NCBI GenBank assembly: GCA_963815215.1
Contig: CAWFFU010000012.1
Coordinates: 1-64,000, forward strand
Direction of reading: 5' to 3'
DNA: 64,000 bases
Source: an uncultured Trueperaceae bacterium
Lineage (GTDB): Bacteria; Deinococcota; Deinococci; Deinococcales; Trueperaceae
Shown here: piece after piece, positions 4,943-17,307 of the stretch
Position numbering within the stretch: position 1 is the stretch's first letter
Layout of the letters: every line of letters starts with the position of its first letter
The notes under the pieces: model-generated
What the model was told of the DNA's origin: nothing
The model's input: only the letters and a program-made list of their open reading frames with translations
Databases searched by the model: none
Made by a program: the position numbers and the translations under genes

Positions 4943-5989
4943 CTAGTCGGGCTCCTCGAGCTGGGCCGTCCATCTAAGCAGCCCCCACGTCAACGGAGTC
5001 CCTTCCGCGTCCCGATCGATCTTCATGCCAAGTACCGTGGTCAAGTGTTTTGGAGATAGTCCGACCCCGGGCCGATAGCGCGAACGTTGTCCGTGGAAAG
5101 TGGTTGCCCTGCTTTTGTGTTCTTGGTGACGTATAGGGAGCGTCGGAAGTGGAGGGAGCCTTGTTCGGCTTGTGGTGGGGCCGAAGTGGGTAGTGCCGAG
5201 GGCTCGCAGGCGCGCTGGGTTTCGTCGACGAGGGTCTTGAGTTCGGGGGGTTCGAGGCAGAAGGCGGCGTCGACTCCGCCATCGCTCGGGAGAGGGTGAA
5301 GTGTTTCTCGAGAGGGTTGCGCCGAGAGCGATGCTGGCGATGGCGGCGCCGATGCCGTGGGTGTGGTCGGAGAGTCCTACGTGGGTGTTGAAGGCGGCGC
5401 GGAGGATGGGGATGGTGAGGAGGTTGGTGGTTTCGGGAGTGGCGGGGTAGGTGCTGGTGCACTTCAGGAGGGTGATGTGGTGGTTGCCTTCGGCGCGTGC
5501 GGTTTGGACGGCGTCGGCGATTTCGCTGAGGGTGGCCATGCCGGTGCTAAGGATGAGGGGCTTGCCGGTTTGGGCGACCTTGCGGATGAGTGGGAGGTCG
5601 GTGATCTCGAAGGAGGCGATCTTGTAGGCGGCGACGTCGAGTTGTTCGAGGAAGTCGACGGCGGTGGCGTCGAAGGGGGTGCTAAGGTACTGGATCCTGT
5701 GTTGGCGGCAACGCTCGAAGATGGGCTGGTGCCAGTCCCAGGGGGTGTGAGCTTCGTTGTACAGGTCGTGGAGGGTCCGGCCGCGCCAAGGGCTGGCGGG
5801 GTCGGTGATGAGGAAGTCGCCGGTGCGGAGTGGGAGAGTCATGGTGTCGGCGGTGTAGGTCTGGAGCTTGACGGCGTGGGCGCCGGCCTCGGCGGCGGCG
5901 TCGACGATGGCGAGGGCTCGGTCAAGGGATTGGTTGTGGTTTCCGGACATCTCGGCGATGATCGTCGGTTCTTGGGTGTCGGTGGTCAT
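4943..5989 (-). CDS. pseI: Pseudaminic acid synthase (frameshifts in the 3' part)
   Basis: IIAEMSGNHNQS, KLQTYTADTMT, STPFD, YKIASFE, LKCTSTYP, GLSDHT, EKHFTL; C-terminal SAF-like RPG.GLSPK. Confidence 0.92.
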   Translation of the reverse strand: MTTDTQEPTIIAEMSGNHNQSLDRALAIVDAAAEAGAHAVKLQTYTADTMTLPLRTGDFLITDPASPWRGRTLHDLYNEAHTPWDWHQPIFERCRQHRIQYLSTPFDATAVDFLEQLDVAAYKIASFEITDLPLIRKVAQTGKPLILSTGMATLSEIADAVQTARAEGNHHITLLKCTSTYPATPETTNLLTIPILRAAFNTHVGLSDHTHGIGAAIASIALGATLSRNTSPSPERWRSRRRLLPRTPRTQDPRRRNPARLRALGTTHFGPTTSRTRLPPLPTLPIRHQEHKSRATTFHGQRSRYRPGVGLSPKHLTTVLGMKIDRDAEGTPLTWGLLRWTAQLEEPD

Positions 5990-6951
5990 GCTTCGAGCTT
6001 CTCCTGGGGTACGAGGACATCGGTGAAGCCTTGCGCGAGGGTGATGTTGGGGTTGGTTGTCTCGTGGATGGTTGTAGCGATGGTGATGCGTCGTCCGACG
6101 CGACGGGTGACTTCGAGTCGGAGGGTAAGGCCTGTGTCGGGATAGGCTGGCGCTAAGAATTCGAGGGTTTGGGATTGGAGGATGGTGCCTGACCGGGGAA
6201 CGTAGTGCCGAGTGTACGTGAGATCGCTGTGGCCAGAAGCGTGCTGGGTGCGAGGGCTGCTCGGAGGCCCGCGTGTCTGGCGGTGTCCGGGTCGTAGTGG
6301 ATGGGGTTGGTATCGCCGGAGGACTGAGCGTAGGCCCGTATCTGAGCGGTTGTGATGGTGAAGGCTGTTTGGTGGTGTGCGCCGATGTCGTAGGGGGTCG
6401 ACTGTTTCGCATCGCCTTCCAGGAGTTGTTCGAAGTAGGGGGCCTGGTACGTTAGCCAGTCCTCGATTGAGAGGGCGAGCCTGATCACGTCGATGCGTTT
6501 GTCGTCGATGACTCGGGCTTTGCGGAAGTTGCCTTCGATCCGGAAGCCGAGCCGCTGATGGTAGGAGAGGGATCGTTGATTGAAGGCCAGGACTTCGCCG
6601 CTGACCTTCTGGAGGCCAAGGTCGCGGAAGGCGTGGTTAAGCGCGAGGAATCCCATAATTGTGCCGAGTCCTCTTCGGGCTGATGGGGGCTTGTAGAAGC
6701 CCCAGAACGCGGTGTGATTCGTGTGGTCGATCCCCGATAGGTTCACCACGCCGTGTCGGTGCGTCGGCGCTGTCAACACAGAGGAAGTACTGCTTTGTCG
6801 GGTCGTCCCAGACGCGTTCGAAATAGTTGTAATGCTCTTCTCTCGTAATGATGCGGGAGGTGTACATGTTGCTGCGAATCTCGGGGCGATTCCGCCATTC
6901 GAGGATCAAGTCGAGGTCTCGTGGTTCCACGGGCCGGAGTCGGTAGTCCAC
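5986..6951 (-). CDS. pseH: PseH-type GNAT N-acyltransferase fused to a MaoC/(R)-enoyl-CoA hydratase domain (two frameshifts)
   Basis: LEWRNRPEIRSNMY, WGFY, EVLAFN..S..YH.RLGF..EG, then in frame SGDTNPIH..LG..FPG/GTILQSQTLEF; its TGA overlaps the pseI ATG. Confidence 0.8.
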
Positions 6952-8097
6952 TACGGTGCTTCCGATTGCGTCTTGGACTTCGCTCGCGTGCTTGTTGCGG
7001 TCTTGTCGGTTGTGTCTGTTCCGGTGGCGGTGAGGGTGTGGTCCGGATCTTTCGTGTTCGAGCGCGGTCGCCACGCGGTAGGCGCCTTCGCCGTCGACGA
7101 TACTCATTCCAGCTCGTGATAGCCGACGTAGTTCTTCGGGGTGGGCCAGGAGCTGTGAGATGGCACTTGCAAGTTGTTCGAGCGTGGTCGTGTTCGCCGT
7201 GCCGAGGTAGTGGATGAGGTTGTCACGGGCTAGGGCTTCGGCTGTGGGTTCTTGGTTGGGCGCGGCGGCGATGACCAGTGAGGGTGTGCCGAGGCAGAAG
7301 CGTTCCCAGGAGGTGGTGCCGCTGGCGCCGATGGCGAGGTCGGCGTGCTGCATGAGTGTATGCATGGTGGTGGTTTGAATGTGGAGCGCGACGGTGTGTG
7401 TCTTGCTGCGGAAGTCTTGGACTTCGTGGAGGTGAGGGTGCGCTTGTCCGATGACGATGTCGAGGTGGAGGGCTCGCAACGCTGTAGTCTCGAGCGCTTG
7501 GAGTGTCCTGAGCGTGAGGCCCTGTTCGTCGATGCCGCCGAAGGAGATGAGGATGCGGTTGACGGTGCCGTCGCGTGGGCGGGTGTGTTGCCGAATGTCG
7601 CGGAACTCTGGGCGGAGCAGCGCGTAGGTCGGCCCGAGTAGGCTTCGGTGGCTGCCTGGGTTTGCGGCGGCATCGTAGTTCTGGTTCAGGACGAGGTCTG
7701 CGTCGTGGAGGCGCGTGGCGTCGTCTTCGATCGCGAGGACGCGCAGGCCGGTGGCCCTTATGGCGTGTTCCCAAGTGTGATCGAGGGCGTAGTGATCGAC
7801 GATCACCCAGTCGGGCCGCTCGAGGTCTTTTGTCGTTGCGAGGACGTCTGCTGCGTCTTGAGTGCTGCTTGCTCCGGCCCAGCTGGTTGGGTCGGCGCCC
7901 GGCGCTTCGACGTTGGGCAAGGTGATAGCTCGGTAGCCGTCTTGTTGGATGCGGTCCGTGAGATTCCCGGGGTGAGGCCGGCAGGCGAAGGTGATGTTCC
8001 CGCCCTGTTCACGGAGTGCGTGGGCGAGGGCGAGGCAGCGCATGACGTGCCCGCTCCCGATGGGGATGCCTGCGTCCGCGCGGATCAGGATGTTCAT
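6951..8097 (-). CDS. pseG: UDP-2,4-diacetamido-2,4,6-trideoxy-beta-L-altropyranose hydrolase
   Basis: IRADA...IGSGHVMRCLALA, IVDHY, LLGP.YALLRPEF, SFGG.D, ADLAIGASG.T.WER, VDG.GA.RV. Confidence 0.9.
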
Positions 8098-8099
8098 GG

Positions 8100-8837
8100 C
8101 TAGATCTGCTTCTGTGCGATGTGGTCGTTGATGTGCGTGAGGGAGGGGTGCTCGCGCACGTAGCGGAGCGCATCTGAATATTCGAAGTGCGGGTTGGTCG
8201 GGTAGAGCGCGTCGTAGATGCGCCGGACGAGTTCCAGATCGTCCAGTGTGTCGACGGTCCAGCGCAGGTCGCTGTTGTCGCTGGTGTCGGTGAGGTCGGC
8301 GAGATGGAAGCGCTGGGGTCGGCGCCAAACGAAGGGCGTGACGTGTTCGCGGTCGCTGGGGCTCGTGGCTTCGCGGTGCGCGGCAGTGAGGGCGCTCGCG
8401 CGGATCGCTTCGACGTCGAGGCCGCGCGGGTACGTTCGCTGCTGGCAGTTGCTGACGTAATCGAGGCTGGGGTCGGCACGGAGCATGGTGATGCAGCGGT
8501 CCACGACGGTGGGCTCGATGAGGGGGCAGTCGGCGGTGATGCGGACCACGATATCGGCGCCGACCGTCGTGGCTGCCAGGTGATAGCGGTCGAGTACATC
8601 TTCTTCGCTGCCGCGCACGAGTTCTGTCTCGGGAAGGGCGCTCGCGACGGCGACGATCGGGTCATCGATGGGATCGGTGGTGGTGGCGACCACCCAGGTG
8701 TCCACGTGCTCGCACCTCAGCAGCCGTTCGAGGATGCGTTGGAGCATGGGGGCCCCATTCAAGTCGGCGAGGACCTTGCCGGGCAGGCGGGTGGAGCCCA
8801 TGCGCGCCTGCACGATGACGGCGACGCGCTCGCTCAT
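8100..8837 (-). CDS. pseF: SpsF-family cytidylyltransferase (PseF function)
   Basis: IVQARMGSTRLPGKVL, GSEEDVLDRY, RITADCP, REHVTP, RWTVDT..D. Confidence 0.8.
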   Translation of the reverse strand: MSERVAVIVQARMGSTRLPGKVLADLNGAPMLQRILERLLRCEHVDTWVVATTTDPIDDPIVAVASALPETELVRGSEEDVLDRYHLAATTVGADIVVRITADCPLIEPTVVDRCITMLRADPSLDYVSNCQQRTYPRGLDVEAIRASALTAAHREATSPSDREHVTPFVWRRPQRFHLADLTDTSDNSDLRWTVDTLDDLELVRRIYDALYPTNPHFEYSDALRYVREHPSLTHINDHIAQKQI

Positions 8838-10003
8838 GCCGTGATCACCTCGGCCACCGCCTGCTGCACGCGCTCGATGACGGAGCCGACGTCATCGTCG
8901 CTCATCTTGGGGTAGATGGGCAGCGAGATGGCGCGTTCGTAGAAGTCCTCGGCGACGGGGCATTGGCCCTTCTGGTAGCCGAGTTCGCGGTAGTAGGGAT
9001 GCCAGTAGACGGGCAGGTAGTGCACTTGCACGCCGAGCCCGAGCTCCCGCAGGCGCTCGAAAAGTGGGCGGCGATGCCGCTTGTCAGCAACGCGGATGAC
9101 GTACAGGTGCCAGGCGGAATCGACGTGGTTTCGGTGACTCGGTCGCTCGATGCCGTCGAGCCCTGCTAGCGCGGTGTCGTAGCTTGCAGCGATCGCCCGG
9201 CGCCGCGCGATGAAGCTGTCAAGCTTGCGGAGTTGGCTGAGTCCTAGTGCGGCTTGGAGATCGGTGAGGCGGTAGTTGTAGCCCAGGTGCTGCATCTCGT
9301 AGTACCAGGGGCCAACGTCGGGCTCGGTGAGGACCTTGGGGTCACGGGTGATGCCGTGCGTTCGGAACACTCGGGCGCGTTCTGCCAGGTTGGGGTCGTT
9401 GGTGGCGACTGCACCGCCCTCGGCGGTGGTGATGGGCTTGACGGGGTGGAAGCTCAGCTCCATCGCGTCCACCAGCGCGGCCACCGGCTGGCCCCGGTAG
9501 GTGGCGCCGAGGGAGTGTGCGGCGTCCGCGACCACGCCAACTCCCGTGGAGCGTGCGAGGGCGTTGAGCGCGTCGTACTCGGCGGGATGGCCGGCGAAAT
9601 CCACGGGAACGATGTACTTGGTCTTGCTGCTCAAGGCGTCGGCGGCTGCGGCGGGATCGAGGTTCCCCGTGTCGGGCTCGACATCCGCGAAGCGCACGCT
9701 GGCGCCAAGGTAGAGCGCGGCGTTCGCGGTGGCCGCGAACGTCAACGGGGTCGTCACGATCTCATCGCCCGCCCCGAGGCCGGCCGCGAAGTACATGGCG
9801 TGCAGAGCGCTCGTGCCGGAGTTCACGGCTACCACGTGCTCTGCCCCCGACGCTGCGCCCACCGCCGCCTCGAACGCTTCGATCGCGGGGCCCGTGGTGA
9901 TCAAGTCGCTGCGCAAGACCTCCACGACGGCTTCGATGTCATCGTCATCCACCCACTGGCGGCCGTACGGCAGGAACGGAGGCTCCTTGGCGCGACTTGG
10001 CAT
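8834..10003 (-). CDS. pseC: UDP-4-amino-4,6-dideoxy-N-acetyl-beta-L-altrosamine transaminase
   Basis: LPYGRQ, NSGTSALH, DAAHSLGA, SFHPVK.ITT.EGG, GYNYRLTD, GVQVHY.PVY. Confidence 0.92.
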   Translation of the reverse strand: MPSRAKEPPFLPYGRQWVDDDDIEAVVEVLRSDLITTGPAIEAFEAAVGAASGAEHVVAVNSGTSALHAMYFAAGLGAGDEIVTTPLTFAATANAALYLGASVRFADVEPDTGNLDPAAAADALSSKTKYIVPVDFAGHPAEYDALNALARSTGVGVVADAAHSLGATYRGQPVAALVDAMELSFHPVKPITTAEGGAVATNDPNLAERARVFRTHGITRDPKVLTEPDVGPWYYEMQHLGYNYRLTDLQAALGLSQLRKLDSFIARRRAIAASYDTALAGLDGIERPSHRNHVDSAWHLYVIRVADKRHRRPLFERLRELGLGVQVHYLPVYWHPYYRELGYQKGQCPVAEDFYERAISLPIYPKMSDDDVGSVIERVQQAVAEVITA

Positions 10004-10006
10004 TCG

Positions 10007-11005
10007 TCAGGGCTCCGCGATCATGCTGCGCAGCTGCGCCTCATCCACCCACCTGTCGTTGCGATCGCTGGTGTACGCGAAGCCGTCCGGGACAGCCTTC
10101 CCGGCAAGGTGACCGTTCTTCCACCACGTCATCTCGGGCTGGATCACGAAGTGATCGCCCAGATCGAGCGTCCGGCGGGCATCGTTGAGGCTGATCATCT
10201 CTTCGTGGATCTTCTCGCCCGGCCGGATGCCCACCACCTTCAGCTCGGCATCCGGCGCGATCACGCGGGCCAGATCCACGATCCGCATGCTGGGGATCTT
10301 CGGCACGAACAACTCCCCGCCATGCATCCGCTCGAGGCTCGCCAGCACGAAATCCACGCCCTGCTGCAAGGTGATCCAGAAGCGCGTCATGCGCTCATCC
10401 GTGATCGGGATGGTGCCGGTGCTCGCAAGCTTCTTGAAGAACGGGATGACGCTGCCGCGGCTCCCCACGACGTTTCCGTATCGCACGACGGCGAAGCGGG
10501 TGCGCTTGCCGCCTGCGTAGGCGTTTCCCTGGATGAACAGTTTGTCCGACACGAGCTTGGTCGCGCCATAGAGGTTGATGGGGCTCGACGCCTTGTCCGT
10601 ACTGAGCGCGACCACGCGCTCCACGTCCTGGTCGATGCACGCATCGATCACGTTCTGGGCCCCGTGGATGTTGGTCTTCACCGCTTCGAACGGGTTGTAC
10701 TCCGCCGCAGGCACCTGCTTGAGAGCCGCTGCGTGCACGACGAACTGAACGTCATGAAGAGCTCGCTGAAGACGGTCACGATCGCGTACATCACCGATGA
10801 AGAATCGCAGGCGCGTGTCGTCCTCGAACTGAGCTCGCATCTCGTACTGCTTGAGCTCGTCGCGACTGAAGATGATTACACGGCGAACACCGGTACGCTC
10901 AAGCAGGGTGCGGACGAACTTCTTGCCAAACGAACCAGTACCGCCGGTGACCAAGACGCTCGCATCGTTGAAGGCGTTGTTGACGCTCACGCTGAAGGCT
11001 ACCAC
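10007..11005 (-). CDS. pseB: UDP-N-acetylglucosamine 4,6-dehydratase (inverting)
   Basis: TGGTGSFG, SRDELKQ, HAAALKQVPAAEYNP, PINLYGATK, RYGNVVGSRGSV, MTRFWITL. Confidence 0.95.
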   Translation of the reverse strand: MVAFSVSVNNAFNDASVLVTGGTGSFGKKFVRTLLERTGVRRVIIFSRDELKQYEMRAQFEDDTRLRFFIGDVRDRDRLQRALHDVQFVVHAAALKQVPAAEYNPFEAVKTNIHGAQNVIDACIDQDVERVVALSTDKASSPINLYGATKLVSDKLFIQGNAYAGGKRTRFAVVRYGNVVGSRGSVIPFFKKLASTGTIPITDERMTRFWITLQQGVDFVLASLERMHGGELFVPKIPSMRIVDLARVIAPDAELKVVGIRPGEKIHEEMISLNDARRTLDLGDHFVIQPEMTWWKNGHLAGKAVPDGFAYTSDRNDRWVDEAQLRSMIAEP

Positions 11006-11476
11006 GGACGCACTTTCTGTTCACAGACTGAGCCTCTAGCTAGCGCCTGGCAGCAGCAATGTATGGCTTGAAGGTGCTATGGGTTCGGGTTCGCTTAGGT
11101 GACCACGCGACTATTGCCGAGATCCTGCGCTTGATCAGGTGGCCTGATCTGATCCCGGAATCTTGAACCTGATAGGGCTGGATGAACGCAGCAGGCACCT
11201 GGATCCCGTTCCCATGGGTCACGTTCAACGCCAATCCAACGCGCTGGCCCACGGTCGCGCGGCTGACAGCCGGCGGCGTGGCGCCGCTGCGGCGTCGAGG
11301 TCGAAACCGACGTCGGTGAAAGTGCGCGTGCGCCAGACGTCGGAGAGGAAGTGCAGCCCACCCTGCTCGAAAAGGTTCGCGACCCTGCTGCTGGATGTTT
11401 CTGAATGTCCAACCTCCCCAGACCGATCACCGCTATTGGCAGGGGGTCACAATCCGGCCCAACCCACGCGGCTTCC

Positions 11477-16544: not shown

Positions 16545-17307
16545 TCAGGCACCGAGCTTCGCCTTCAACCCCTGCCATCGCGAGACGTCGAGCGTGATGT
16601 CGTCGGGGAGCTCCACGCCCGCCCCGCGCTTGCTCCCCGGCCGCACGTCCGGTCGGCGCCGGCGGGCCAGCTCGAACGCGCTCTTGCGCTCGGTCGCGAT
16701 GTGAAGGGTGTCGTAGGGGACATCGTCGAGATGGCGGAGCGCCAGAACGATGTCCGGCGCGATGACGTCGACGTAGTCTTGCGACGTGAACACGTCCGTG
16801 AAGGCGACCGGATAGGGCCAGGCACCGGGACGGAAGCTGGTACGGAGCACGAGGGTCCGTGGCAGCGTGCGCGCGACCTCCTCCGCCGCCAGCTTGCTCA
16901 GGGCGTAGTAGTTGCGAACCGGCCCCGGCGGGTCGTCCTCGCGGTAGCCGGTCCCGAGGCGTCCCCTGTCCCCGTGGAACACGTAGTCCCCGTAGAACAC
17001 GTAGTCCGTGGAGATGTGCACGAGCCGGGCGCCGGTCTCCCTCGCCGCGGCCACCACGGCGCGCGTCCCCGCGACGTTCACGTTCCAGCACTTGGACCGG
17101 TCGCTCTCTGCGGCACGGACGTCCGTATAGGCCGCGGCGTGCACGATGACGTCGGGACGGTACGCGCGCACGCGTTCGGCCACGCCGGCGGCGTCGAGCA
17201 GATCCAGTTCGCTCCGCGGCGGCGCGTCCATCTCGGGTAGCAGCCCACGATAGCTCGGTCCCGAGGACGCCGCTTCCCCCCGTCAGGAGGATCCTGGGAG
17301 CGCTCAC
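16545..17307 (-). CDS. rfbD: dTDP-4-dehydrorhamnose reductase (frameshift near 17240)
   Basis: ILLTGGSGVLG, HAAAYTDV..AE, HISTDYVF, Y..SK. Confidence 0.88.

Follow-up and report, generated by a model that had tools for sequence, protein, structure and literature searches.

The 64,000-nucleotide stretch of DNA analyzed here (positions 1 to 64,000 of contig CAWFFU010000012.1 from an uncultured Trueperaceae bacterium, hereafter the window) carries, within a cluster of genes for pseudaminic acid (Pse) biosynthesis, a gene in which the sugar N-acyltransferase PseH, a GNAT protein, runs into a hot-dog domain of the MaoC family. This GNAT+MaoC fusion, designated pseH-maoC, is a genuine and recurrent architecture and constitutes a so far unnamed variant of PseH. 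Judging from its domain composition and gene context, we tentatively propose, at somewhat less than even chances, that the fusion acts as a self-supplying N7-(R)-3-hydroxybutanoyl transferase, in which a PseH GNAT is tethered to a PhaJ-type hydratase, yielding Pse5Ac7(R)Hb.

In the window, pseH-maoC lies on the minus strand and extends from GTG 6951 to TGA 5986, a span of 966 nucleotides (nt) that corresponds to exactly 322 codons. The assembled gene is read in three pieces (see the table below), which are colinear with a close and intact relative, P0002, a protein of 322 amino acids (aa) recovered by a word-indexed search (53% identical to the query across 92% of its length) and harboring both GNAT and MaoC Pfam domains. 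The N-terminal piece (6754-6951) presents 79-80% identity to P0002 residues 2-66, the middle piece (6192-6752) 53% identity to residues 68-254 and the C-terminal piece 70-71% identity to residues 256-321. The colinearity of the three pieces with P0002 indicates that the architecture seen in the window is not due to chance. The middle piece contains the junction between the two domains: it matches the TIGR03585 PseH profile at positions 61-155 of 156 (E 7.3e-18, 65.1 bits) and the PF01575 MaoC_dehydratas profile at positions 13-68 of 123 (E 2.9e-9), contains the motif SSGDTNPIH, and presents no stop codon between the GNAT and MaoC domains (frame of the open reading frame [ORF] 6156-6905). A preliminary description of this DNA, made from its letters alone, had reported a GNAT domain running in frame into a hot-dog domain with the motif SGDTNPIH, which these profile matches bear out on the minus strand, and an ATGA overlap with pseI, which can be read directly from the junction sequence. 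It had also counted a single indel, whereas two 1-nt indels are present, one surplus base within the GNAT domain (6753) and a missing base at 6190/6189, and the window gene is consequently not a single reading frame. At the first of these breaks, a tblastn search with P0002 changes frame between 6757 and 6752, and the number of residues from CV to GVV equals that of P0002 if base 6753 is ignored. At the second, one residue is absent between FPG and GTIL in alignment A1 (6190/6189), and the hot-dog reading then resumes with GTILQSQTLEFLAPAY; this C-terminal piece matches the NF006045 enoyl-CoA hydratase profile at positions 79-147 (E 2.9e-5). When translated as assembled from GTG 6951, the gene reaches a stop at 6637-6639 after 104 codons, and the public gene call on the contig is a 167-aa fragment (P0001). 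Each PseH piece alone scores below the TIGR03585 cut-off of 93.1 bits and the two together cover the profile, for which intact relatives obtain 116-190 bits.

A HMMER scan with P0002 retrieved 125 cluster representatives with E values at or below 1e-30. Local hidden Markov models of the GNAT and MaoC domains were built from the two halves of alignment A2, and both domains were identified in 42 of the 149 non-window representatives among the matches listed, with a complete GNAT domain in 27 of these. The search of metagenome contigs from the Joint Genome Institute (JGI) returned 45 loci, 21 of which (L015-L035, including the near-duplicates L016/L017 and L029/L035) encode both domains in one ORF. 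Nine loci with flanking sequence were annotated: pseI directly follows the fusion in eight of them (L017, L019, L024, L026, L027, L029, L030, L032), pseG precedes it in seven, and no other PseH match was found among the ORFs scanned in the nine; the exception, L018, lies near an IS3 transposase. The GNAT+MaoC architecture, for which the preliminary description had suggested looking in pse clusters, therefore recurs there, in the PseH slot. Two genomes stood out in a survey of 301 genomes of the window's phylum. G134, which belongs to the same order as the window genome and is 99% complete in 2 contigs, presents a split form of the system, pseG-pseH-maoC-pseI (L062 1073-2043, minus strand), with a 187-aa PseH, only 2 nt from the pseH stop to the maoC ATG, and a complete, PhaJ-like maoC product bearing the motif GDLNPVH. 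G292, from the same family as the window genome, encodes a 313-aa GNAT+MaoC fusion (L063 1495-2436, minus strand) located outside any pse cluster, with a GNAT domain that lacks the first ~50 profile positions, and flanked by a transporter-like ORF and a membrane protein ORF. That the same pair exists both as a fusion and as neighboring genes of one operon is a classic sign of two activities working together.

Several searches delimit this distribution. With the window piece as query, a search of the 40 nearest genomes revealed no fused homologue, its best matches being single domains with E values of 5e-8 or weaker; a search of genome contigs with P0002 yielded 4 loci, all of them single-domain; and in a tblastn search of P0002 against a plasmid collection, none of the 226 matching records reached 80% coverage of the query. 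The top plasmid matches were plain PseH genes of Sinorhizobium rkp-3 regions; the Rm41 region (L060) comprises pseBCFGHI with a 185-aa PseH, and no MaoC was seen near its pse genes in the annotation. A blastn comparison of one low-GC fusion gene with E. coli genomes gave no match, a result that is silent on whether Psb5 of Shigella boydii type 7 is fused. Database names for members of the fusion read plainly 'PseH', NCBIfam contains no model for a PseH-MaoC fusion, and a literature search found no paper on the fusion, none naming both PseH and MaoC, and none combining pseudaminic, enoyl-CoA hydratase and hydroxybutyryl.

The identity of the two domains was assessed by searching the PDB with a profile of 12 fusions. 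Profile positions 176-306 aligned to residues 9-140 of 155 of an (R)-specific enoyl-CoA hydratase (5cpg, E 1.5e-32) and end to end to Aeromonas caviae PhaJ (1iq6, E 3e-26), and also matched HTD2 (3ir3); positions 4-139 matched C. jejuni PseH (4xpk, E 1.5e-24). The best PDB matches of the hot-dog domain were hydratases and dehydratases, not thioesterases. In its AlphaFold model, P0002 is predicted to consist of two well-defined domains without confident mutual orientation, with a mean predicted local distance difference test (pLDDT) score of 90, linker residues 173-185 below pLDDT 50 and a predicted template modelling (pTM) score of 0.60. A Foldseek search superimposed the hot-dog domain of this model on 1iq6 (template modelling [TM] score 0.90, root-mean-square deviation 2.1, 33% identity) and its GNAT domain on H. 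pylori PseH (4ri1, TM 0.84), and returned no solved chain spanning both domains. The D and H of the GDxNPxH motif in P0002 align with the D and H of 1iq6, which we take to be the catalytic residues Asp31 and His36 of the PhaJ hydratase-2 motif; the window copy reads GDTNPIH, and its two hot-dog halves match P0002 residues 187-321. Both profile and model comparisons thus support the hot-dog domain as a single hot-dog, (R)-specific enoyl-CoA hydratase of the PhaJ type, in agreement with its earlier description as a MaoC/(R)-hydratase.

PseH acylates the C4 amine of a UDP-sugar, and this amine becomes N7 of Pse. In the mechanism that we propose for the fusion, whose gene takes the usual place of pseH, flanked by pseG and pseI, a short flexible linker would tether the GNAT domain to the PhaJ-type hydratase. 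The hot-dog domain would hydrate crotonyl-CoA to (R)-3-hydroxybutyryl-CoA beside the GNAT domain, which would then place the (R)-3-hydroxybutyryl group on the 4-amine of UDP-4-amino-4,6-dideoxy-beta-L-AltNAc, and PseG, PseI and the cytidylyltransferase would subsequently yield CMP-Pse5Ac7(R)Hb instead of Pse5Ac7Ac. An (R)-specific hydratase acting on crotonyl-CoA would give the (R) stereochemistry that is observed, and a supply of (R)-3-hydroxybutyryl-CoA for N7 acylation plausibly fits known glycans. A scan of the window's own genome for other sources of (R)-3-hydroxybutyryl-CoA identified one other MaoC gene, and its best acetoacetyl-CoA reductase match scored 279 bits versus a curated cut-off of 302. 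The occurrence of Pse with an N-3-hydroxybutyryl group in bacterial glycans, which the preliminary description had mentioned, is corroborated by published excerpts describing Pse5Ac7(R)Hb as a natural component of Acinetobacter baumannii K42/K93 and S. boydii type 7 glycans, in which the N7-(R)-3-hydroxybutanoyl group is genetically tied to replaced PseG/PseH homologues (PMC9676051, PMC6586298, PMC3628348). The enzymes for Pse N-modifications are termed 'largely unknown' in an excerpt of a 2024 paper (PMC11040635).

The broken state of the window copy has to be weighed first, since it forms part of a wider pattern. At least eight frame breaks occur in 1-17.3 kb, including two in pseI and two in pseH-maoC; others affect a GT2 fragment, a partial flippase, the N-terminus of rmlA, which lies in another frame, and a split epimerase, and rmlD (16548-17282), which also belongs to the glycan locus and matches its profile only in part, is a probable further break. 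Among the 40 ORFs scanned in 16.5-64 kb, by comparison, no split profile was seen, rmlD aside, with not all matches running end to end and four ORFs without a family match. This contrast between at least eight breaks in 1-17.3 kb and no split profile among the ORFs scanned in 17.3-64 kb, the lower GC content of the island (55-67% versus about 71% elsewhere) and its location at an end of the contig, namely its start, and the failure to find a fused homologue in the 40 nearest genomes all speak for real frameshifts, with the glycan island decaying in this lineage and pseH-maoC persisting here as a pseudogene without product. We nevertheless regard decay as rather doubtful. Every break that could be resolved is a 1-nt indel, and no in-frame stop codon is present within the pieces, which are well conserved (79/53/70% identity to P0002); moreover, the profiles of pseB, pseC, pseG, ugd and rmlB are matched over their full length. 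Contigs from four public runs were also compared with the window, of which they cover small shares, most placed contigs being relatives at 90-95% identity. One independent contig (X1 record 1), which may derive from the source sample, presents 311 letters over the 310 letters of window 5916-6225, with 1 mismatch and 1 gap (~99.7% identity). It is exactly one base longer across the second break, the gap being placed only to within 5916-6225, and this extra base favors an assembly error. This comparison concerns the second break; the first (6753) lies in a region (6539-7005) where public-run cover is thin. Overall, we consider it fairly likely that the indels result from assembly or consensus error rather than gene decay, and the organism's own pseH-maoC gene is probably intact.

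Other observations weigh against a donor-making role for the hot-dog domain, or against specific aspects of the proposed mechanism. The GDxNPxH motif, which most aligned fusions keep, is lost in 4 of 25 (P0016, P0026, P0028, P0048), and the window copy reads APS where P0002 and most members of the family present an HG dipeptide, ~15 residues after the motif. In addition, 17 related PseH proteins carry a C-terminal extension of ~100 aa that no longer scores as MaoC. The bearers of this extension, which has no Pfam match, are 260-290 aa long (they include P0022, P0030, P0032, P0039, P0041, P0051, P0052, P0057, P0065, P0070 and P0076) and are interleaved with true fusions in a GNAT tree, a quick version with weak support that cannot count gains and losses of the hot-dog domain and that places 27 of 28 fusions in one 79-row group. 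Because they adjoin true fusions in this tree, the extensions are probably decayed hot-dog domains, one of them retaining a weak match to the 4HBT_3 thioesterase family, and their interleaving with fusions indicates that many lineages can do without hydratase activity. The absence of a confident inter-domain geometry in the model makes any channelling between the two domains a matter of speculation, and two A. baumannii chromosomes included in the plasmid collection, both of undetermined K type, carry plain PseH-type GNATs. The loss of the motif, the degenerate extensions and the missing HG dipeptide are compatible with a hot-dog domain that does not make the donor; PseH would then still transfer acetyl, and its partner could act as a thioesterase, as a scaffold for oligomerisation, or as a module for acyl-CoA binding or regulation. 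This alternative appears unlikely, given that most members keep GDxNPxH together with the whole PhaJ fold at 33% identity to 1iq6, that the leading PDB matches are hydratases and dehydratases rather than thioesterases, and that the pse operon with the split form retains a PhaJ-like gene that is complete and keeps the motif. It is very improbable that the fusion is an artefact in which separate pseH and maoC genes were joined by a stop-removing indel, for even though the locus is rich in indels and the split form exists in G134, the domain junction lies within one uninterrupted frame (6192-6752) colinear with P0002 and the same single-ORF form is present in 21 metagenome loci.

Hot-dog domains are not the only partners of PseH. 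Fusions with formyltransferase domains, located at either the N- or the C-terminus, were observed in P0110, P0126 and P0134, and tandem GNAT-GNAT forms, along with one weak PhyH-like N-terminal part, among P0086, P0092, P0103 and P0133. The formyltransferase PseJ is known for Pse5Ac7Fo (PMC11040635), and formyltransferase-PseH fusions fit the idea that the partner fused to PseH relates to the choice of N-acyl group. Together, these architectures suggest that modular N-acyl variation is centered on PseH.

The pse genes of the window, arranged on the minus strand in the order pseB, pseC, cytidylyltransferase, pseG, pseH-maoC and pseI, form part of a surface-glycan locus that occupies window positions 1-17.3 kb and also includes GT2, DUF6418, flippase, rmlA, epimerase, ugd and rmlBCD genes. 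No second PseH match was found among the window ORFs scanned. The two frame breaks of pseI lie near 5315 and 5070, as tblastn places the ends of the gene in frame and its middle out of frame. The pseG frame reaches the pseH GTG at 6951 without meeting a stop codon, while a TAG in another frame overlaps this GTG as TAGTG; a further indel may be present near 7040-7050, at the pseG 3' end. A PseG-PseH fusion of 545 aa is known from another relative (P0056). The missing pseG stop raised the possibility of a PseG-PseH-MaoC triple fusion, which was rejected as a feature of the family upon finding no protein longer than 545 aa among the best 150 representatives. Unlike the metagenome clusters, which match the PseF equivalog TIGR03584, the window gives no match to this model for the cytidylyltransferase that stands in the place of PseF; among NCBIfam models, only those of the KdsB type match this enzyme, and only in its N-terminal half. 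In three of the metagenome loci, additional genes were observed between pseC and pseG: a reductase resembling short-chain dehydrogenases/reductases (SDR/FabG-like) and a 549-aa ORF that matched no NCBIfam model at a threshold of 1e-25 in L027 (3157-5575), and a KidO-like aldo-keto reductase together with an aminotransferase resembling glutamate-1-semialdehyde (GSA) aminomutase in L024 (2229-5892) and L029 (3019-5921).

Features of the pseH-maoC gene and of the neighboring pse genes, in window coordinates.
Feature	Position	Strand	Description
PseH (GNAT), N-terminal piece	6754..6951	-	66 codons from GTG 6951; TIGR03585 profile 2-58/156, E 9.1e-17, 61.6 bits
First frame break	6753..6753	-	One surplus base relative to intact homologues, inside GNAT
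PseH C-terminal two thirds, ~13-residue linker and N-terminal half of hot-dog	6192..6752	-	187 codons
Second frame break	6190..6191	-	Two bases in place of the homologues' codon (one base missing); P0002 high-scoring segment pairs change frame
C-terminal half of hot-dog	5989..6189	-	67 codons, original (GTG) frame; stop TGA 5986-5988
Stop/start overlap ATGA of pseH-maoC and pseI	5986..5989	-	TGA 5988-5986 over pseI ATG 5989-5987, read from sequence
pseI (pseudaminic acid synthase)	4946..5989	-	TIGR03586 profile 2-218/327 in one frame, 228-302 in the frame of 5044-5376
pseG (UDP-sugar hydrolase)	6952..8097	-	ATG 8097; TIGR03590 PseG 1-280/280, E 3e-84
Cytidylyltransferase in PseF position	8103..8891	-	PF02348 CTP_transf_3, E 3.8e-31
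pseC aminotransferase, intact	8837..10006	-	TIGR03588 1-379/380, E 4e-144
pseB dehydratase, intact	10010..11020	-	TIGR03589 2-323/324, E 1.9e-159

Pseudaminic acids decorate flagella, capsules and O-antigens, and their N-acyl groups alter antibody and phage recognition. The PseH-PhaJ fusions and the split pseH-maoC pair could represent the missing enzyme of the N7-(R)-3-hydroxybutanoyl branch, making its own donor from crotonyl-CoA, a possibility that we hold as tentative and short of probable. If this is true, one could predict from sequence alone which acyl group a bacterium's Pse bears at N7, according to whether the hot-dog domain is catalytic, degenerate or absent, and the fusion would offer a possible marker for the (R)-3-hydroxybutanoyl glycan variant, currently hidden under plain PseH labels. 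The fusion and its split form also provide a concrete and cheap test of how (R)-3-hydroxybutanoyl is supplied and installed; the window copy itself, broken as assembled, is of lower value for this purpose.

Four known systems invite comparison with the fusion. FdhC and QdhC (PDB 5kta) resemble it in being GNATs that N-acylate a nucleotide-linked amino sugar with 3-hydroxybutanoyl, a transfer documented for FdhC (PMC4869667). They differ in their sugar, dTDP-Fuc3N or Qui3N, and in having no fused hydratase; the PDB search with the fusion profile picked up 5kta at E 1.4e-8, a weak match at the level of the GNAT domain. PsaG/PsaH of A. baumannii KL42/KL93 and Psb4/Psb5 of S. boydii type 7, compared here by description only, share with the fusion their nature as PseG/PseH variants tied to N7-(R)-3-hydroxybutanoyl, and the excerpts describing them mention no hydratase (PMC9676051, PMC6586298, PMC3628348). 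Canonical PseH (UDP-4-amino-4,6-dideoxy-N-acetyl-beta-L-altrosamine N-acetyltransferase; TIGR03585, PDB 4xpk and 4ri1) has in common with the fusion the GNAT fold, a whole-profile match and its place in a pseBCFGHI cluster, with pseG and pseI as neighbors, but it is an acetyl-CoA user of ~160-190 aa, to which the fusion adds a C-terminal hot-dog domain of ~135 aa. PhaJ (1iq6, 5cpg), finally, shares with the fusion the single hot-dog fold, an end-to-end alignment and the hydratase-2 motif with its Asp and His, the window copy departing from it by presenting APS in place of HG. Whereas PhaJ is free-standing and feeds polyhydroxyalkanoate synthesis, the corresponding domain is here fused to a sugar N-acyltransferase or, in G134, encoded beside it.

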